A stretch of 64,000 nucleotides of DNA, taken from positions 7,349-71,348 of the forward strand of contig JAXLTA010000009.1 of assembly GCA_046330305.1 (NCBI GenBank). The letters are read 5' to 3'. The DNA comes from Solirubrobacterales bacterium (lineage in GTDB: Bacteria; Actinomycetota; Thermoleophilia; Solirubrobacterales; 70-9). The notes below the pieces were generated by a model. It saw only the letters and a program-made list of their open reading frames with translations. It had not been told where the DNA came from and did no database searches. Position numbers and translations under genes: made by a program. Shown here piece by piece: positions 5,624-53,499 of this stretch (position 1 is its first letter; the number at the start of each line of letters is the position of its first letter).

Positions 5624-5894
5624 CTATTCGAGCACCGTGAACCTGCGGGTCACGGCGGCGCCGAGGTTGCCGGCCGCGTCGGTCGCCCTGACCTTGAACA
5701 CGTGCCTGCCGGGCTTCAGTTTCCTGTAGGTCTTCGGCGACCGGCACTTGGCGAACTTCCTCTTGTCGAGCCGGCACTGGAACGAGGAGCCGCTCTCGTC
5801 TGAGCTGAAGACGAACTTCGCCGTCGTGCTCTTGGACTTGGCCTTCGGGGCCTTCTTGATCGTCACCTTCGGCTTCTCCGTGTCGGGAGTCGGC
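5624..5894. repeat. 271-bp near-identical block, copy 1 (3' end of the short beta-helix gene)
   Basis: By eye it differs from 7102..7372 at only 5 positions, starting exactly at the stop codon. The sequences upstream of the block within the genes, and outside the stop codons, are not alignable at DNA level. Confidence 0.9.
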
Positions 5895-18061: not shown

Positions 18062-18134
18062 TCCGGGGTGGTGTAATCGGCCAGCACGCCAGGTTTTGGT
18101 CCTGGAAGAGAGGGTTCGAGTCCTTCCCCCGGAA
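18062..18134 (+). tRNA. tRNA-Gln (anticodon UUG)
   Basis: Folded by hand into a 73-nt cloverleaf. The acceptor is TCCGGGG/CCCCGGA, the D stem GTGT/GCAC, and the anticodon stem CCAGG/CCTGG with loop TT-TTG-GT. The T arm is GAGGG-TTCGAGT-CCTTC and the discriminator is A. No CCA is encoded. It follows glmU, as in many Actinomycetota. Confidence 0.9.
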
Positions 18135-23596: not shown

Positions 23597-23602
23597 CGCC
23601 AG

Positions 23603-23659
23603 AGCATAGGAACGACGAGACCCCGCGCGCGGGCAGCGCGGGGTCTCGTCGTTCCTATG
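23603..23659 (-). terminator. 25-bp perfect inverted repeat (7-nt loop) between metG and tatD; putative I-shaped terminator or regulatory hairpin
   Basis: GCATAGGAACGACGAGACCCCGCGC (23603..23627) is the exact reverse complement of 23635..23659. On the minus strand the hairpin ends 6 nt before the tatD ATG and begins 60 nt after the metG stop. Confidence 0.4.
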
Positions 23660-23719
23660 CGCCGGTTATCGCCAGCTATCCGCTTGCGCTGAATCGCACA
23701 AGCGTCCAGATCGGAGTCT

Positions 23720-37320: not shown

Positions 37321-38607
37321 ATGAGCGTCGCTTCTCAGAGCTTGATGGACAACGTCACCTACGAGGACCTCTACCGCCGCTGGGAGCACGGCAACTGGAG
37401 CGCCTACGACCTCGACTTCAGCGGCGACCGGCCCGGCTGGGAGGGGCTGAGCGAGATCCAGCGCCGCTCGGCGATGTGGATCTACTCGATGTTCTACTAC
37501 GGCGAGGACCGGGTGGCCGACACGCTCGCGCCCTACGTGACCGCCGCCCCGACCGAGGAGCAGTCCTACTTCCTCGCCACCCAGCAGGTCGACGAGGTGC
37601 GCCACTCGATCTTCTTCCACCGCTTCTTCAAGGAGGTGATCGGCGTCGGCGGCGAGACCGTGGAGCAGACGCTGGCCTCCACCCTGCCGCAGCTGAACTG
37701 GGGCTACCGGGGGATCTTCGACCGCCTCGACCGGATGGCGGAGGAACTGCGCAGGGATCGCTCGCTGCCGAAGTACGCGCAGGCGATCACCCTCTACCAC
37801 CTGATCGTCGAGGGCAGCCTCGCCCAGCCGGGCCAGCACTTCATCGAGGACTTCTTCGCCTCGGCGGAGACGATGCCGGCCTTCAGCGCCGGCATGGCGA
37901 ACGTCTCGCGCGACGAGCAGCGCCACATCGGGTTCGGCGTCAAGGTCCTCTCCGAGCTGCTCGCCGAGGGCACGCCCGGGTGGGAGGAGAACCGGGCGGC
38001 GGTGGTCGAGCTGCTGCGGGAAACGCTGCCCTACGGGCCGGCAGTCTTCTCGCCGCCCGGGCTCGACCGCGAGTACACCGAGTGCTACGGCTTCCGCCTC
38101 GAGGACATCTTCGCCTTCGGCCTCAAGCTGATTCGCCAGCGCTGGCGGACGATCGGCTTCCCGACCGAGGAGATGCCGCCCGGGGTCTTCCCCTTCGACC
38201 CCGAGGAGAGCGCCGAGGCGGTCGCCGAGCGCCAGGTGAAGCTGATGATGGGCGGCATCCTCGGCGCGCCCGACGGTCCGCCACCGCAGTCGACCCCGGA
38301 GCTGCAACGCCTCTACTTCGACCTGATCGCCCGCGTCGCCGACCCGGCAGCCGCCAACGGCGAGCAGCTCGTCTACCAGTGGCGCTTCACCGATGCCGAC
38401 CCCTGGCACCTGATCCTCGACAACGGCTCGACCCGTGCCGAGCCGGGCCTGGCCCCCAACCCCACGGTGACCGTGGAGACCAGCTGGGCTGACTGGATCG
38501 CCTCGGGCAAACCCGATGCCAACCAGCTGAAGATGCTGCTCCAACGCCGGATCCGGCCGCGCGGCAAGGTTCGCGAGCTGGCGCGGATGCGGCGGGTGTT
38601 CGGGTAG
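37321..38607 (+). CDS. Ferritin-like di-metal carboxylate protein of the R2 (ribonucleotide reductase small subunit)-like / R2lox-like type, fused to a C-terminal SCP2-like domain
   Basis: Two ExxH motifs (QVDEVRHSIFF and SRDEQRHIGFG) plus the carboxylates GEDRV and IVEGSL. Phe sits at the position 4 residues after the first ExxH His. The C-terminal ~100 aa (WRFTDADPWHLILDNG...ETSWADWIASGKPDANQLKMLLQRRIRPRGKV) look like SCP2. Confidence 0.85.
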   Translation: MSVASQSLMDNVTYEDLYRRWEHGNWSAYDLDFSGDRPGWEGLSEIQRRSAMWIYSMFYYGEDRVADTLAPYVTAAPTEEQSYFLATQQVDEVRHSIFFHRFFKEVIGVGGETVEQTLASTLPQLNWGYRGIFDRLDRMAEELRRDRSLPKYAQAITLYHLIVEGSLAQPGQHFIEDFFASAETMPAFSAGMANVSRDEQRHIGFGVKVLSELLAEGTPGWEENRAAVVELLRETLPYGPAVFSPPGLDREYTECYGFRLEDIFAFGLKLIRQRWRTIGFPTEEMPPGVFPFDPEESAEAVAERQVKLMMGGILGAPDGPPPQSTPELQRLYFDLIARVADPAAANGEQLVYQWRFTDADPWHLILDNGSTRAEPGLAPNPTVTVETSWADWIASGKPDANQLKMLLQRRIRPRGKVRELARMRRVFG

Positions 38608-38651
38608 TCGCGGCGGGCGAGGGACGGGCCAAGGGACGAAGGCTTCGCGAG

Positions 38652-38774
38652 GGGGAGGGGTGGGGTGTCCCTCTTCACTCGGCCGTGTCGTCGGCGAGAA
38701 GCTTTCAAGCTCCTCGCCCGCAGCCCAGCCCTCCTCAGCCGCAAAACGATCAGAGGAACACCCCACCCCTCCCC
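38652..38774. repeat. Element copy A, left-arm rod hairpin
   Basis: 38652..38674 (GGGGAGGGGTGGGGTGTCCCTCT) pairs with 38752..38774 at 22 of 23 positions. The apical stem is GGCGAGAAGCTT-TC-AAGCTCCTCGCC. Confidence 0.75.
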
Positions 38775-38933
38775 TGGCAACAGGAACCACCGCCCGCGCC
38801 CGCTCCCAAAGCTTCAAAGGGACGAAGGCGCCCCGCCGAAAACGCAGTTCCGCTCGCTATGCGAGTGAAAGTGCGTTCTCAACGGGCGGTGATGGAAGCG
38901 CGCTCTCAAGCACCATTGAAAGCGCCAAGGCAT

Positions 38934-38978
38934 CCCGTGGTTCCTTGTGGACGCTCTGGGTCCGCAAGGAACCACGGG
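38934..38978. repeat. Element copy A, core hairpin H2
   Basis: CCCGTGGTTCCTTG (38934..38947) pairs perfectly with CAAGGAACCACGGG (38965..38978), with a 17-nt loop. Confidence 0.8.
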
Positions 38979-39004
38979 ATGGGAAAACGCCGGCTTTGCG
39001 GAGG

Positions 39005-39047
39005 GCGTGGTTCCTAACGGTCGCCAGGCGACCGTTAGGAACCACGC
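39005..39047. repeat. Element copy A, core hairpin H3 (43-bp perfect palindrome)
   Basis: GCGTGGTTCCTAACGGTCGCC-A-GGCGACCGTTAGGAACCACGC has 21-bp perfect arms. Confidence 0.85.
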
Positions 39048-39210
39048 GATTGGAGGCCGGTCCGGCTCTTCGAGAACGCGGGGCTGGGGTGCTCGTCCCT
39101 TGCCGCTCTTCGAGAGACGCTGGGCCTGGTCCCTTTCAAGCTCTGGGCAAGGGGGCGGGGCCTCGTCTTTGTCCGGGAGCTCCCGGGGTTGGGGGGCCGT
39201 GGAGCCTTCA

Positions 39211-39329
39211 GGGAGGGTCGGGTGACCCTCTGAACGTTTTGCGGCTGAGGAGGGCTGGGCTGCGGGCGAGAGCTCTCCCAACTCCCCGACGACGACACGG
39301 CCGAGTGAAGAGGGTCACCCGACCCTCCC
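39211..39329. repeat. Element copy A, right-arm rod hairpin
   Basis: 39211..39231 (GGGAGGGTCGGGTGACCCTCT) pairs with 39309..39329 at 21 of 21 positions. Confidence 0.8.
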
Positions 39330-39389
39330 GACCAGCCTCTCGTCCCCCACCCCCCTGCGAGCCCCCGTCCCTTACAGGGGGCCCGGTGC

Positions 39390-40805
39390 TCAGGCGATGG
39401 GCGGCCGAGCCGCCGCCCAAGGCCGCTCGGTCTCGAGCTGGCCGGCCAGCGAGAAGAGGGTCGCCTCGTCGCCGGGGCGGGCGACGACCTGGACGGCGAG
39501 CGGGAGGCCGTCGGCGGCGAAGCCGGTGGGCACCGACATCGCCGGGTTGCCGAGATGGTTCCAGGGGATGCAGTAGGGATAGAAGCGGCTCATCCCGAGC
39601 ACGGTGTAGAGGGCGCCGCGACCCTCCCACTTGCGCACCGGCAGCGCGGTGCCGCCCATCACGGGCATCACCAGGACGTCGAACTCGTCGAAGATCGCGT
39701 TGATCCGGAGGGCGTCCTCCTCACGGCCCGCCAGTGCCCGCTGGTAGACCGCCTCCGGGAGCAGGGAGCCGAGGCGGCCGAAGCCGCGCGTGCGCCGTTC
39801 CAGTCGGTCGGGGTGAGGCACCTCAGCGACGGAGTCGGCGACACCGCGCAGGAAGCGGGGGGTGATGTTGTTGGCGACGTTCCCCCAGTCGGGGTCGCGT
39901 TGCTGCACCTGGTGGCCGAGCGCGGTCAGCATCCGCGCCGCCTCCTCGACCGTGGCCGCGACCTCGTCGGAGAGGACCGGCGGCGCCAGCGCCCGCGGCG
40001 GCTTCGTCGACCAGGCGACGCGCAGCTTGCCGGGCGGGGATTGCGCCGACTCGACGAACGGCCGCTGCGGGGGCGGCGGCGCGCCGGGCTCCTTCGACCC
40101 ACCCGAGACGACGTCGAGCCAGAGGGCGCTGTCGACGACGTTACGACTGAGACAGCCGAGCGCGGCGAGACCGTGCCAGCCATCCAGTTCCGGCGCCAGC
40201 GAGACGCGGCCGCGCTGGGGCTTCAGCCCGAACAGGCCGCAGGAGGCCGCCGGCAGCCGGATCGAGCCGCCGCCGTCGCCGGCCAGGGCGACCGGGACGA
40301 GGCCGGCGGCGACCGCCGCGCCCGAGCCGCCGCTGGATCCGGCCGGGGTGCGCTGCGGGTTCCACGGATTGCGGGTGACGCCGTAGGTCGCCGACTCGGT
40401 GAAGCCGCAGATCGCCAGCTCGGGCAGGAGCGTGATGCCGACGATGATCGCGCCCGCCTCGCGCAGCCGGCGGACGACCTCGGAGTCGGCCTTGGCCGGG
40501 CGGTCGAAGGCATCGGTCCCCCAGGTGCGAACCTCGCCGGCGATCTCGACTTCGTCCTTGATCGCGATCGGCACCCCGAGCAGCGGCCGCGTCTCCCCCG
40601 CCCGCAGCCGCGCCTCGGCCTGCTCGGCTTCCAGCATCGCCTTCTCGGCGAAGACCTTGCGGAACGAGTTCAGCTGCGGGTCCAGGCGGGCGATTCGGTC
40701 GAGGCAGATGCCGACCAGCTCAGCCGGAGAGACCTCGTGCTCGCGGACCATCTCCGCCATCCGCGCGGCGCCGGCAAAGGCGATCTCCTCGGCTCCCTTG
40801 GCCAC
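39390..40805 (-). CDS. Amidase (amidase-signature family)
   Basis: Contains GGSSGGSGAAVAAGLVPVALAGDGGGSIRLPAASCGLFGLKP (AS Gly/Ser-rich signature) and the KD..E region LLGVPIAIKDE. Confidence 0.9.
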   Translation of the reverse strand: MAKGAEEIAFAGAARMAEMVREHEVSPAELVGICLDRIARLDPQLNSFRKVFAEKAMLEAEQAEARLRAGETRPLLGVPIAIKDEVEIAGEVRTWGTDAFDRPAKADSEVVRRLREAGAIIVGITLLPELAICGFTESATYGVTRNPWNPQRTPAGSSGGSGAAVAAGLVPVALAGDGGGSIRLPAASCGLFGLKPQRGRVSLAPELDGWHGLAALGCLSRNVVDSALWLDVVSGGSKEPGAPPPPQRPFVESAQSPPGKLRVAWSTKPPRALAPPVLSDEVAATVEEAARMLTALGHQVQQRDPDWGNVANNITPRFLRGVADSVAEVPHPDRLERRTRGFGRLGSLLPEAVYQRALAGREEDALRINAIFDEFDVLVMPVMGGTALPVRKWEGRGALYTVLGMSRFYPYCIPWNHLGNPAMSVPTGFAADGLPLAVQVVARPGDEATLFSLAGQLETERPWAAARPPIA

Positions 40806-49037: not shown

Positions 49038-49208
49038 CCAAGCACTCCGGCCCGTCCGTCGCGAGCAGGGAATTCGCAAATCGCAACCTTCTTGTGAACG
49101 GCTCGGCAACATCTTCCCCGCGTCTTGCGGAGGGGCGGGGAAAACCCGCATCGCGGCCGGCGGCAGGACACCCGGACCCCGGAGCCGGCGGCGCTAGAAT
49201 TCCCGCCG

Positions 49209-49850
49209 ATGGAGGCTCATACCACCCCGAGCCGGCGCAGCGAAAAGCTCGCCGCCTCTCCCCCGCTTTTCAAAAGCGAGTTCCTCAACTTCTTCTCCCG
49301 CGTCCACCCGGCGATCCCGGCGCTGATCTTCGTCCCGGTCGTCGTCGTCATGGAGTGGCTTGCCTTCGACAAGGGCTGGGACCTCTGGCAGGTCGTGGTC
49401 CTGACCCTGGCCGGCATCGCCTTCTGGACGCTGACCGAGTACTGGCTGCACCGGCTGGTCTTCCACTGGGAGCCGGACAACGCCTTCGGTCGGCGGATGC
49501 ACTTCATCATCCACGGCATCCATCACGACCACCCCAACGACAAGCTCCGCCTGGTGATGCCCCCTTCGGTCTCGATTCCCCTGGCCGCCCTCTTCTTCCT
49601 CGTCTTCTGGCTGATCCTCGGCAACGCCGCCTTCCCCGTCTTCGCCGGCTTCATCGGCGGCTACCTCGCCTACGACTACACGCACTACTACGTCCACCAC
49701 TTCGTGCCGAAGACCCGCTTCGGCAAACGCCTGCGCGAACACCACATGCGCCACCACTTCCAGGACCACCGCTACGGCTACGGCGTCTCCTCGCCCGTCT
49801 GGGACGTCGCCTTCAAGACCCTGCCGAGGCAGCGGAAGCAGCGGGACTAG
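49209..49850 (+). CDS. Fatty acid hydroxylase / sterol desaturase superfamily membrane protein
   Basis: Histidine boxes are present: WLHRLVFHW, IHGIHHDHPND, HYYVHH and HHMRHHF. The ATG at 49209 is in frame within ORF 49125..49850. Confidence 0.85.
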   Translation: MEAHTTPSRRSEKLAASPPLFKSEFLNFFSRVHPAIPALIFVPVVVVMEWLAFDKGWDLWQVVVLTLAGIAFWTLTEYWLHRLVFHWEPDNAFGRRMHFIIHGIHHDHPNDKLRLVMPPSVSIPLAALFFLVFWLILGNAAFPVFAGFIGGYLAYDYTHYYVHHFVPKTRFGKRLREHHMRHHFQDHRYGYGVSSPVWDVAFKTLPRQRKQRD

Positions 49851-49908
49851 GCGGTCGGGGCGCTCGCGGGCAGTGCCCCCGACGGCCAAGGGACGGAGGT
49901 TCGCGAGA

Positions 49909-50030
49909 GGGAGGGGTGGGGTGTCCCTCTTCACTCGGCCGTGTCGTCGGGGGGAAGCTTTCAAGCTTCTCGCCCGCAGCCCAGCCCTCCTCAGCCGCAA
50001 AACGTTCAGAGGAACACCCCACCCCTCCCC
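49909..50030. repeat. Element copy B, left-arm rod hairpin
   Basis: GGGAGGGGTGGGGTGTCCCTCT (49909..49930) pairs with AGAGGAACACCCCACCCCTCCC (50008..50029). The apical stem is GAAGCTT-TC-AAGCTTC. Confidence 0.75.
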
Positions 50031-50259
50031 TGGCAACAAGAACCGCCGCCCGCGCCCGCGCCCAAAGCTTCAAAGGGACGAAGGCGCCCCGCCGAAAACG
50101 CAGTTCCGCTCGCTATGCGAGTGAAAGTGCGTTCTCAACGGGCGGTGATGGAAGCGCGTTCTCAAGCACCGTTGAAAGCGCCAAGACATCCCGTGGTTCC
50201 TTGTGGACGCTCTGGGTCCGCAAGGAACCACGGGATGGGAAAACGCCGGCCTTGCGGAG

Positions 50260-50302
50260 GCGTGGTTCCTTACGGTCGCCTGGCGACCGTTAGGAACCAC
50301 GC
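50260..50302. repeat. Element copy B, core hairpin H3
   Basis: GCGTGGTTCCTTACGGTCGCC-T-GGCGACCGTTAGGAACCACGC has one T-T mismatch (50271/50291) relative to the perfect copy A. Confidence 0.8.
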
Positions 50303-51799
50303 GATTGGAGGCCTTGGTCCCTTGGGGGCTCTTCGAGAGACGGTGGCCCTGGTCCCTTTCAAGCTCTGGGCAAGGGGGCGGGGCCTCGTCTTGTCCGGGA
50401 GCTCCCGGGGTTGGGGGGCCGGTGGACTCTTCAGGGAGGGTCGGGTGACCCTCTGAACGTTTTGCGGCTGAGGAGGGCTGGGCTTCGGGCGACAGCTTTC
50501 CCCACTCCCCGACGACGACACGGCCGAGTGAAGAGGGTCACCCGACCCTCCCGACCAGCCCCTCGTCCCCCGCCCCTGCGAGCCCCCGTCCCTTACAGCG
50601 GCCCCCCTCAACGCCAGCTCCAACTCGAACCGTCGGTCCGGATCGACGAGCGAATCGCCGAGCAGCTCGCGAAGCCGGGCGATCCGGTAGCGGGCTGTCT
50701 GCGGATGGATCTGCAGCTCGGTGGCGATCGCCACCGCGTTGCCGCCGTGGCGGACGTGGGCGAGGGCGGTCTCGCGCATCCGCGCTCTGGCCTTTGGCGT
50801 GAGGTCAGCAAGCGGGGCGAGGCGGATGGCGGCGATGCGGGCGGTGAGGGCGGCGCCCTGGGCCAGCAGGAGTGCGGCGAGGTGGTCGTCGGCGCGCAGG
50901 AGGCCGGCCGGGGGGACGGCGCCGCTCTCGGACGCGCGCAACAGGGCGCCGGCGAGGGCCCATGAGTCGGCCAGCCCCGAAGGCGCGGCGGCCGGGCCGA
51001 GAGCCAGGCGCGAGGAGACGGCGGCGCGCTCCAGGACGGTGGCGCGGCCGGGACCGTCGGGGTCGGGGATGACCAGGCAGCCGACCCCCTCCCGCGCCAC
51101 CGCCAGGGTCTCCGGCGGCAGGCGGCGCGCCAGCGCCGCCAGGTCGGCCTCGGCGCAGGCGGCAGCGGCGGCGAGCCGGGGCAGCCGCCAGGCGGCGGCT
51201 CGAGCGGCGGCGGTCAGCTCGTCCGGCGCGGCCGGGGGCTCGGCGAGGAGCAGTCCGGCGAGCCGGCGACGGCGCTCGCGGCGCTCGTCCTCGACCTCGG
51301 CCTGGGCCGCGGCGTACCCCTCGGCCGAGTCGGCGGACAGCTCGTCGATGTAGGCGAATATCGCCTCGGCCAGCAGGATCAGCGGCTGGGGGCCGATGCC
51401 GGCCTCACCGCAAGCCGCGGCGATCCGGCGCCAGGCCACGCGGGCGCCGGAGCGATACGCGGCGAGCAGCGAGTCGAGCGCTCTGCCCTCGCGCTGCTCG
51501 CCACGGCCGAGCTCCACATAGACCTCGCGCCCCGTCCCCCGGCCGGCGTCCGGATCGCGGATCAGGGCGACGAACTGCCGCAGCGCCTCGCCTACCCCCG
51601 TGCGGAGGTTGCGGCCGAAGTTGCCCTCCAGCGGCCGGGCGTACTCGGGAACCTGGAGGGAGATCGTCGCCAGGATCTCGCCGGTGATGGCGGGCAGCTC
51701 CGGCTCGATCACGTCGGCGACGGCGGCGGGCAGGTCGCGCCACGGCTCGGCTGCCACTCCGGCCCCGCCGCGGGTCGCGGTATCGGACTTTTTTGGCAT
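50270..51799 (-). CDS. PucR-family transcriptional regulator. The ORF as it stands reads about 111 codons into repeat copy B.
   Basis: The C-terminal HTH reads GNAVAIATELQIHPQTARYRIARLRELLGDSL...RRFELELALR. After that point (about 50604) the frame continues through the repeat (GAAVRDGGSQGRG...PIAWFLTVARRP) to a TAA at 50270..50272. Confidence 0.75.
   Translation of the reverse strand: MPKKSDTATRGGAGVAAEPWRDLPAAVADVIEPELPAITGEILATISLQVPEYARPLEGNFGRNLRTGVGEALRQFVALIRDPDAGRGTGREVYVELGRGEQREGRALDSLLAAYRSGARVAWRRIAAACGEAGIGPQPLILLAEAIFAYIDELSADSAEGYAAAQAEVEDERRERRRRLAGLLLAEPPAAPDELTAAARAAAWRLPRLAAAAACAEADLAALARRLPPETLAVAREGVGCLVIPDPDGPGRATVLERAAVSSRLALGPAAAPSGLADSWALAGALLRASESGAVPPAGLLRADDHLAALLLAQGAALTARIAAIRLAPLADLTPKARARMRETALAHVRHGGNAVAIATELQIHPQTARYRIARLRELLGDSLVDPDRRFELELALRGAAVRDGGSQGRGTRGWSGGSGDPLHSAVSSSGSGESCRPKPSPPQPQNVQRVTRPSLKSPPAPQPRELPDKTRPRPLAQSLKGTRATVSRRAPKGPRPPIAWFLTVARRP
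50434..50552. repeat. Element copy B, right-arm rod hairpin
   Basis: 50434..50454 pairs perfectly with 50532..50552. The stem sequence is the same as in copy A. Confidence 0.8.
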
Positions 51800-53374: not shown

Positions 53375-53418
53375 GCAGCCCTCTCGTCCAGCCCGGGCCG
53401 GAGCCGGGCCTACGGAGA

Positions 53419-53488
53419 ACGGGCCCCGGTGAGGGTCCTCCAGACACTCAGCCCGAAGGGCGTCTGGAGGACCCTCGCCGGGGCCCGT
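53419..53488. terminator. 27-bp-stem hairpin between convergent genes (putative bidirectional I-shaped terminator)
   Basis: ACGGGCCCCGGTGAGGGTCCTCCAGAC (53419..53445) pairs with 53462..53488 at 26 Watson-Crick positions plus one G-U. The loop is 16 nt and there is no U-tract. Confidence 0.45.
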
Positions 53489-53499
53489 CCCATGCGGCC

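Follow-up and report, generated by a model that had tools for sequence, protein, structure and literature searches.

Hairpin arms of a mosaic intergenic repeat in Solirubrobacterales and their probable selection for a single-stranded fold

The window considered here is a stretch of 64,000 nucleotides from a Solirubrobacterales bacterium (GenBank assembly GCA_046330305.1, contig JAXLTA010000009.1), which holds two copies, A and B, of a non-coding composite element. Copy A fills most of a 782-bp spacer (38608-39389) between the stop codons of two convergent genes, and copy B lies between a FA_hydroxylase gene (49125-49850, plus) on one side and the gene of a PucR-like regulator (minus) on the other. 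Each copy is built around two mirrored arms, left and right, and each arm consists of a long stem closing a large loop. From the comparison of these arms with their relatives in other genomes, selection for a hairpin formed by a single strand appears very probable, and what follows describes the element, the evidence for this selection, the sites at which such elements are inserted, and the role that they may have.

Architecture of the composite element

The general layout of these elements comprises two mirrored arms, CGTCCCTT and AGCT motifs, and two to four terminator-like hairpins in the centre. The sense strand of an arm is defined here as the one reading GAACGTTTTGCGGCTGAGGAG...CGACGACAGGCCGAG, and in every pair the sense strands of the two arms face outward, which in the window corresponds to the minus strand for the left arms and to the plus strand for the right arms. 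The motif CGTCCCTT is matched eight times in the window, versus 2.2 matches expected, and seven of the eight are located inside the two copies in a mirror-symmetric arrangement. A second motif, termed motif 2, has a counterpart 25-85 nt upstream, in the sense direction, of nearly every arm at all loci; a conserved promoter was not found upstream of the arms, the AGCT core of motif 2 alone being constant and TAAGCT being present in two loci only.

The small hairpins of the centre belong to a family, GTGGTTCC...GGAACCAC, characterised by a conserved outer stem and by an inner stem that changes in sequence while remaining paired. The two members in copy A thus have a common outer stem and different inner stems, both of them still paired. 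This family is represented twice per element in the window and four times in tandem in a related locus (L034, 7409-7660), and it also occurs solo in another intergenic region of loci L026-L029 (L026 6480-6530). In copy A, past these hairpins (39066-39120), the sequence GCTCTTCGAGA[A/G]ACGC is found twice, ~38 nt apart, and only once in copy B, so that either A has undergone an internal duplication or B a deletion. Elsewhere in the window, two long hairpins with short loops (23599-23665 and 53417-53490, with 30-bp and 31-bp stems and 28 matches each) share no sequence relationship with the element; they may represent terminators or palindromes of another kind.

The two arms of copy A are inverted copies of each other, with 86% identity over 122 nt, and their loops measure 77 nt each. 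The original prediction for this locus, made from the letters of the sequence, proposed that the differences between the left and right stems are compensated within each arm. The four stem strands do lie where it placed them (Table 1), and they pair at 22 of 23 positions in the left arm (96% complementary) and at 21 of 21 in the right arm, the single non-Watson-Crick pair of the left stem being a U.G on the minus strand. A T-A pair of one stem is indeed an A-T pair in the other, a G-C pair is a C-G pair, and direct reading of the strands confirms that each difference is mirrored by the partner strand. Only the loss of a single G was an incomplete description: the right stem has two G-C pairs fewer, one internal, which had been noticed, and one at the outer end. 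The arms of copy B, compared over 49909-50029 and 50434-50552, carry the same stem states, also as predicted, plus one additional change at the outermost left pair, which is wobble-compatible on the minus strand.

Only these four arms in the window combine a stem of 20 bp or more, pairing of 90% or more and a loop of 20-150 nt. As 100 simulations with a first-order Markov model gave on average 0.05 such hairpins per 64 kb, the set exceeds chance. A covariance model of the arm likewise finds the four arms only, and in copy A it scores 129.5 bits on the minus strand versus 33.8 on the plus strand for the left arm, and 126 on the plus strand versus 31.5 on the minus strand for the right arm. When compared with dinucleotide shuffles, the RNA folding z-scores of the arms range from -4.1 to -7.8.

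Table 1. Positions of the composite elements, their parts and their neighbours in the window, and state of the orthologous sites in related loci (P1, outer helix; P2, inner helix; site A, site of copy A)
Feature	Position	Strand	Remarks
Composite element, copy A	38628-39376	no strand	~750-bp non-coding mosaic; homology with copy B from GGCCAAGGGACG to CGTCCCTTACAG
Composite element, copy B	49886-50597	no strand	93% mean column identity to copy A; 90.9% over 761 nt
Left arm, copy A (type-1 module)	38652-38774	sense minus	P1 38652-38674/38752-38774; P2 38680-38684/38737-38741
Left outer strand, copy A	38652-38674		GGGGAGGGGTGGGGTGTCCCTCT; 23 nt
Left inner strand, copy A	38752-38774		AGAGGAACACCCCACCCCTCCCC; 23 nt
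Right arm, copy A (type-1 module)	39211-39329	sense plus	P1 39211-39231/39309-39329; P2 39242-39246/39299-39303
Right inner strand, copy A	39211-39231		GGGAGGGTCGGGTGACCCTCT
Right outer strand, copy A	39309-39329		AGAGGGTCACCCGACCCTCCC
Junctions of right arm, copy A	39232-39241 and 39304-39308	plus	5' GAACGTTTTG; 3' AGTGA
Left arm, copy B	49908-50030	sense minus	type 1; covariance model 131 bits on minus
Right arm, copy B	50434-50552	sense plus	type 1; covariance model 126.4 bits on plus
Small hairpin 1, copy A	38931-38981		GTGGTTCC...GGAACCAC family; 22-24-bp stem, short loop
Small hairpin 2, copy A	39002-39050		GTGGTTCC...GGAACCAC family; 21/21 paired
Two central small hairpins, copy B	50187-50237 and 50260-50302		within 50187-50302
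Motif 2, left half	38809-38831	minus	CCTTCGTCCCTTTGAAGCTTTGGG; upstream of left arm in arm sense
Motif 2, right half	39127-39146	plus	GGTCCCTTTCAAGCTCTGGG; mirror partner of 38809-38831
Terminal CGTCCCTT motif, left end of copy A	38631-38638	minus	
Terminal CGTCCCTT motif, right end of copy A	39366-39373	plus	mirrors 38631-38638
RNR-small-subunit-like/SCP2 gene	37321-38607	plus	flanks copy A
Amidase gene	39390-40805	minus	flanks copy A
Site A in L032			empty; 8-bp spacer, same convergent gene pair
Site A in L033			empty; 3-bp spacer, same convergent gene pair
Site A in L026, L027, L029			508-bp insertion, two mirrored type-2 hairpins
Site A in L030			AbiEii-type genes
Site A in L031			type-1b element
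IS3-family and IS110-family insertions in L034	7865-9447 and 9623-10885		

Covariation and strand preference of the arms

Related arms were collected by scanning one genome per species and the JGI metagenomes with 20-mers taken from the loop. Most of the matches were chance ones in coding DNA, and six loci had real arms: L001, L003 and L005 from one Solirubrobacterales metagenome-assembled genome (MAG), L002 from a MAG labelled "Actinomycetes", and L011 and L019 from metagenomes. Synteny look-ups added L031, at the site of copy A (neighbour protein 90% identical), and L034, at the site of copy B (85%), whose arms represent a loop subtype, 1b, in which the junctions are kept and the interior is different. 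Homologs of the proteins encoded beside the elements of the window carry the name Solirubrobacterales, in line with the origin of the window. The resulting sample comprises 13 arms from ~7 genomes, several of them with shared ancestry; copy numbers per genome include at least three at or near contig ends in MAG DASXFL01 and the two composites, hence four arms, of the window. As these copies were found through a loop 20-mer or by synteny, the integrity of the stems was not selected by the search. Moreover, since the query 20-mer spanned just P2, GAGGAG and part of one junction, neither the conservation of the other blocks nor the stem pairing is a search artefact.

According to the proposed fold, followed 5' to 3' along the sense strand, the arm would start with an outer helix, P1, of 21-25 bp, whose sequence drifts freely while its pairing holds. 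This helix would close a nearly invariant asymmetric internal loop, with GAACGUUUUG on the 5' side and AG[U/A]GA on the 3' side, followed by an inner helix, P2, of 4-5 bp (CGGCU/GGCCG, or CGCC/GGCG in subtype 1b) and by a variable apical hairpin flanked by the conserved blocks GAGGAG and CGACGACA. The distribution of conservation in the aligned arms is consistent with this arrangement, as the identity of the P1 strands between genomes is 54-58% and that of the variable loop region 41%, versus 87-100% for the junctions GAACGTTTTG and AG[T/A]GA, P2, GAGGAG and CGACGACA.

Two alignments were used to count covariation. In the first one (A2, ten arms, MAFFT), for which RNAalifold predicts a P1 of 23 bp and a P2 of 5 bp, 97.1% of the cells are paired, versus 75.7% in shuffles (none of 500 reaches the observed value) and 43-50% with slid partners, and 20 of the 23 P1 pairs have changed on both sides. 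The second one (A3), fitted to the model and extended to 12 arms including subtype 1b, gives 97.2% of paired stem cells, versus 75% in shuffles and ~48% in slid controls, and in it one P2 pair switches from G-C to C-G. Pairing is at least about 90% in all 13 arms, and not only P1 but also P2 and the apical hairpins covary. Relative to the right arm of the window, one compensated pair was counted in the right arm of L031 and two in the left arm of L034. In the arms of the second loop type (type 2, described below), likewise, 23 of 47 predicted pairs have changed on both sides. The collection of further copies and the count of their covariation thus support the structural selection on the stems that the original prediction had put forward.

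The second line of evidence is the asymmetry between the strands. With the stems registered by hand from the loop-proximal end, 18 cells are G.U (G.T) on the sense strand, against zero or one A.C, which would be a wobble on the opposite strand, and about four mismatches on both strands; when ancestry is collapsed, about a dozen independent G.U events remain versus none (sign test, p < 0.01). In the model alignment the counts are 25 G.U cells in sense versus two in antisense, ten of the 25 coming from the invariant U.G pair of P2, and pairing reaches 97.2% in the sense orientation versus 90.1% in the antisense one. In nine of ten arms the sense strand has the lower minimum free energy, and the sense/antisense z-scores are -7.8/-5.3, -5.0/-4.1, -5.4/-2.6 and -6.1/-3.8. 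G.U pairs confined to one strand indicate that the structure is read on a single strand, and their presence without A.C is predicted neither by a double-stranded palindrome nor by descent from two unit types. A replication-strand effect is excluded by L005, where each of the paired arms has its G.U on its own outward strand. Between L003 and L011, G.U pairs derive from both C-to-T and A-to-G changes of the sense strand, a pattern that fits either a selective filter or the deamination of a strand that is often single-stranded, and that makes this strand special in either case.

Taken together, the predicted covarying helices, the invariant junctions, the variable apical hairpin and the wobbles on one strand are the classical signature of a functional single-stranded fold.

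Insertion sites and related units

The orthologs of the genes that surround copy A are only 3-8 bp apart in the relatives with an empty site (Table 1), so that the 782-bp spacer of the window represents an insertion. Other relatives carry different sequences between the same genes, including, in L030 (6525-7903), an AbiEii-domain gene together with a second small gene. By this comparison of gene orders, the convergent junction between the RNR-like and the amidase genes is an insertion hotspot. At the site of copy B, the open reading frame of the PucR-type regulator (50270..51799, minus) enters the element for ~100 codons (50270-50597), which encode a low-complexity tail. The HTH_30 domain of this protein ends at residue 398 and, among the homologs listed, 119 of 119 are 387-405 aa long; the insertion of copy B therefore seems to have displaced the stop codon of this gene.

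The 93% identity between copies A and B compares with a patchy 70-100% to the elements at the orthologous sites in L031 and L034. As the two copies are closer to each other than to those elements, they would be either recent duplicates or homogenised. Every element is intergenic, those of the window (twice), L005, L026/L029 and L034 being placed between convergent genes and that of L002 between tandem genes, with its type-1 arm co-directional with both. No target-site duplication was evident when the junctions of A and B were compared with each other and with the empty sites of L032 and L033, the ends being known to within a few nucleotides.

Besides the type-1 arms, a second type of hairpin was observed, with a covarying stem of 30-36 bp and a loop containing GATATGCAATCTG (L026 11322-11473 and 11612-11764, the same in L029, and L002 3187-3343). 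Its stems resemble those of type 1 (GGAGGG.TGTCGGT..CCCTCC), and in L002 it is paired with a type-1 arm; arm pairs of mixed loop types are found in L002 and L011. The type-1 arm of L011 has two palindromes beside it (5625-5724 and 5741-5831), one with a 39-bp stem (2x GAGCTGACGAGGGAC) and the other a short-loop hairpin with a stem similar to those of the arms (GGAGGGGTGTCGGGGTGTCCTCT) and without the conserved loop, which may be an 'empty' frame.

Stems and loops also show different distributions. The left-type stem is 100% identical over 27-28 nt between the window and L034 despite the differing loop interiors, and the loop of the window is common to distant genomes with different stems (window 38628-39376 versus L034 7204-7893 and L002 2840-3366). 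This comparison suggests separate histories for stems and loops, through recombination between copies or exchange of loop cassettes. In L034, the loop of the right arm contains an IS3-family element (rve, HTH_Tnp_1), and an IS110-family transposase gene starts ~130 nt past the 3' strand of this arm. The hairpin element seems to be a preferred target of insertion sequences (IS).

Possible role, competing explanations and known families

In our preferred reading, to which we assign a probability of roughly 45%, the element is a non-coding mosaic repeat that arose by insertion, and each of its arms, ~125 nt long, is a structured module under selection for a fold of one strand, likely as RNA and acting in cis. 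RNA would be a somewhat better candidate than single-stranded DNA (ssDNA) for the molecule that folds, because up to four G.U pairs are found in one 24-bp stem (L019), the U.G pair of P2 is invariant, and the copies are located at probably transcribed positions, such as gene 3' ends or the space between tandem genes. The element would be transcribed by read-through from the flanking genes and would act on those same transcripts. On them, the central hairpins and the distal sense arm would form a stable 3' structure that would restrict transcription running on into the opposing gene and stop 3'-to-5' exonucleases, in the manner of the REP/BIME sequences of Escherichia coli. There, REPs act at once as terminators and as stabilisers, and their position between convergent genes is correlated with a higher expression of the two genes (preprint 10.64898/2026.03.23.713779). 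Such a 3'-end or insulator role, proposed by analogy, is tentative and may well not apply here. Another option, which we regard as unlikely, is that the arm would be a new class of ~125-nt structured non-coding RNA with a specific core, spread by a mosaic mobile element. In this case, the GAACGUUUUG / AG[U/A]GA loop, P2 and the GAGGAG/CGACGACA blocks would make up a protein- or ligand-binding or catalytic core, and the RNA might, for example, be processed from read-through transcripts, act in trans, or have a part as RNA in the mobilisation of the element.

Several observations weigh against the cis-acting RNA module. A scan for sigma-70 promoters gave no promoter-like site, and a scan for terminators gave two weak sites, not above shuffles, and none of the canonical intrinsic kind; a U-run is also lacking after the 3' strand of P1, whichever the sense. 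Transcripts entering from either flank encounter the proximal arm in antisense and only the distal one in sense. A sense arm would thus be present in read-through transcripts only, a difficulty for a simple terminator model. Strand-specific deamination could add to the G.U excess without selection, and the sense strand is more stable with DNA parameters as well, so that the folding energies point to one strand under either parameter set and do not tell RNA from ssDNA. Finally, most type-1 copies were found by an exact loop 20-mer, which makes the conservation there partly a matter of ascertainment, and the arm sample is small and partly shared in ancestry, with alignment A3 fitted to the model.

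Other identities of the arm were considered and rejected. Protein-coding arms do not agree with core lengths of 69, 70 and 71 nt, with indels in the variable region, with the lack of a conserved start, or with the stop codon present in one copy. The sequence CUGAGGA fits the CUGANGA of hammerhead ribozymes, yet there is neither a GAAA/UH arrangement nor an Rfam hit. By eye, the internal loop lacks the consensus positions of a K-turn, a sarcin-ricin loop or attC, and a local hairpin of the 5' strand followed by UUUU, which would be an internal terminator, is not conserved among the copies.

The main rival to the RNA reading places the same hairpin in an ssDNA intermediate of mobilisation, handled by a HUH tyrosine transposase of the RAYT/TIRYT type or by an attC-type recombinase. 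Only copies with intact stems would then propagate, and the covariation would reflect selection among element lineages instead of a host RNA function. This explanation, which we consider rather unlikely, would account for an insertion that has empty sites in relatives and is duplicated within the genome, for the different hairpin types at the same intergenic site in different relatives, and for the stability of the favoured strand under DNA parameters. It also has precedents, as REPINs are described as hairpins in 'ssDNA or mRNA' with frequent compensatory changes (PMC3116915), and cases are known of RAYT-like genes between long, sometimes self-complementary terminal inverted repeats (TIRs) that form repeat families (PMC3733652). 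However, in ten annotated loci (L026-L035) no Y1/HUH transposase or integrase is encoded near any copy, the IS3- and IS110-family genes being found in L034 only, and the absence of an evident target-site duplication adds to this. Furthermore, the enzymes of REP and IS200/IS605 elements recognise short conserved hairpins and a conserved flanking tetranucleotide, whereas here the stems are long and variable, the conserved sequence sits inside the loop of the arm, and the four G.T pairs tolerated in the 24-bp stem of L019 are more typical of RNA. A different view, and a quite improbable one, retains the composite and dispenses with ongoing compensation: left- and right-type arms would be two separate palindromic unit families of a BIME-like composite, and what looks like compensation would be descent. 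It fits the recurrence of the stems GGGGAGGGGTGGGGTGTCCCTCT (left) and GGGAGGGTCGGGTG.CCCTCT (right) in relatives (L034 at site B, L031 at site A), where they keep their side with respect to the neighbouring genes, as well as the mosaic nature of the element and the arms of different loop type within a pair (L002, L011). Nevertheless, the changes within each type are compensated again (two pairs in the left arm of L034 and one in the right arm of L031), the stems of other genomes form a continuum and not two classes, and the origin of mirrored palindrome variants would still need a structure-preserving process. Judging from these stem comparisons, the two types are old variants, recurring in L034 and L031, which represent points on a continuum of compensated stems. 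The BIME-like composite that the original prediction had offered as its alternative therefore stands as an architecture, a mosaic of palindromic unit families, and does not stand as two discrete REP-like families, no solo left- or right-type unit having been seen in the window or the loci, a thin sampling.

Compensation could also arise without any selection on structure, if template switching or gene conversion between the strands of a stem kept these quasi-palindromes complementary. Template switching reportedly gives rise to perfect hairpin stems and preserves them, with substitutions that look compensatory (PMC8794818). The pair flips in the window (T-A to A-T, G-C to C-G), which lack a wobble intermediate, would be easier in one templated event, and the right-arm stems are perfect (21/21). 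We deem it very improbable, given that templated repair gives Watson-Crick pairs and no preference of G.U over A.C (18 versus 0-1 observed), that all 13 arms keep their pairing at or above about 90% despite the divergence of their strands, and that no decayed copy was found among arms ascertained by loop or synteny. The covariation of P2 and the apical hairpins and the conserved internal-loop sequences, which point to function, are likewise at odds with it. [quoted passage not shown] The composite is indeed small and non-coding, has inverted ends of ~120 bp with 86% identity, is inserted at gene ends and is present in two copies within 12 kb. However, the sequence of TIRs should be conserved, and here the stems drift while the pairing within each arm is kept; the strand asymmetry would be left unexplained, the mixed arm types within a pair (L002, L011) do not agree with it, target-site duplications are not evident, and neither the window nor the loci contain an autonomous partner.

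Comparison with databases placed the element in no known family. In the window, Rfam at the gathering threshold reports one tRNA only, and at E <= 10 the element region gives generic miRNA-hairpin noise far below threshold. A tRNA gene is located at 18062-18134. No match was obtained in viral contigs with an exact-motif scan, nor with blastn of the whole element against plasmids and phages or against 5,426 E. coli genomes, and in the literature no paper was found that links Solirubrobacter with REP-type repeats.

In architecture, the closest relatives are REPINs and BIMEs. REPINs are likewise non-autonomous, repeated intergenic units of ~100 nt, in which two strands in inverted orientation enclose a spacer of ~70 nt; for them, too, a long hairpin is predicted in ssDNA or mRNA, and compensatory changes are frequent (Bertels and Rainey 2011, PMC3116915). 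However, the ends of REPINs (REP 16-mers) are nearly invariant and their spacer is variable and pairing, whereas in the present element it is the ends that vary and the centre that is conserved and largely unpaired (P1 54-58%, junctions and P2 87-100%); in addition, no RAYT is found in L026-L035, and the host is a Gram-positive, high-GC bacterium. With BIMEs, the element shares the mosaic of palindromic units in alternating orientation together with short motifs, a match in architecture only, the location at gene 3' ends and between convergent genes, and the same proposed role as terminator or mRNA stabiliser. REPs are also described as targets of IS insertion (PMC1525189), comparable to IS3 and IS110 in L034. 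Contrary to BIMEs, its units are 4-5 times longer, have a conserved loop of 69-89 nt and show no similarity to enterobacterial palindromic unit/REP types (5,426 E. coli genomes). REPs are palindromes of 20-40 bp, while the arms measure 119-123 nt with a loop of 69-77 nt, the small hairpins (~45-50 nt) being closer. REP palindromes also have a conserved GTAG (or CGTC) tetranucleotide at one foot (PMC3733652); GTAG is at neither foot of any arm, and CGTC occurs just inside the CGTCCCTT motif, 14-85 nt from the stems.

Other known systems share some of these features. ERIC, Correia (NEMIS), RUP and BOX are imperfect palindromes of 100-150 nt in transcribed intergenic DNA that form long RNA hairpins, some of which are RNase III substrates or alter mRNA stability; unlike the arms, where a sequence-free helix closes a conserved multi-part loop, they pair over most of their length and their sequence is conserved. 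Integron attC sites resemble the arms in conserving structure over sequence, in being recognised on one strand and in their variable length, but the arms lack R''/R' core sites (RYYYAAC / GTTRRRY) at the foot of the stem, cassettes and an integrase, and they form mirrored pairs instead of arrays in the same orientation. As in Rfam-type motifs, covarying helices are combined with invariant junctions, a variable apical hairpin and G.U on one strand; here, however, the motif is carried in mirrored pairs by a repeated inserted mosaic and has no fixed position with respect to one gene family. Like a MITE, the element has TIRs on a short non-coding sequence; however, no target-site duplication is evident, the TIRs are not conserved, and no autonomous IS of the window or the loci has such ends. 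Intrinsic terminators differ from the arms, which have loops of 69-77 nt and no T-run, and from the central hairpins, which are short-looped and also without T-run. As for the ends of IS200/IS605, the arms are inverted, so that no strand has both in sense, and no TnpA/TnpB genes are present in the window or the loci. As the element departs in defining features from REP (in size), REPIN (reversed conservation of ends and spacer), MITE (conserved TIRs and target-site duplication), attC, IS200/IS605 and intrinsic terminators, it is not placed in any of these named families, and the best reading of the sequence comparisons is a previously undescribed family of structured intergenic repeats, BIME- or REPIN-like in architecture.

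Solirubrobacterales are abundant, poorly cultured soil Actinobacteria for which, to our knowledge, essentially no non-coding repertoire has been described. With this element, a system of mosaic intergenic repeats comparable to REP/BIME/REPIN is present in them as well. Its signature is unusual, a long sequence-free helix enclosing a core that is strongly conserved and for the most part unpaired, with a clear preference for one strand. The selection on repeat hairpins has long been debated, and the element offers a way to test if its target is RNA or ssDNA. The covariance model R1 is a ready probe for a census in genomes and metatranscriptomes. It also makes insertion exactly between convergent stop codons approachable, since occupied, empty and otherwise-occupied sites can be compared. 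The reshaping of neighbouring genes by such repeats becomes testable too, with copy B adding ~100 codons to a PucR-type regulator.

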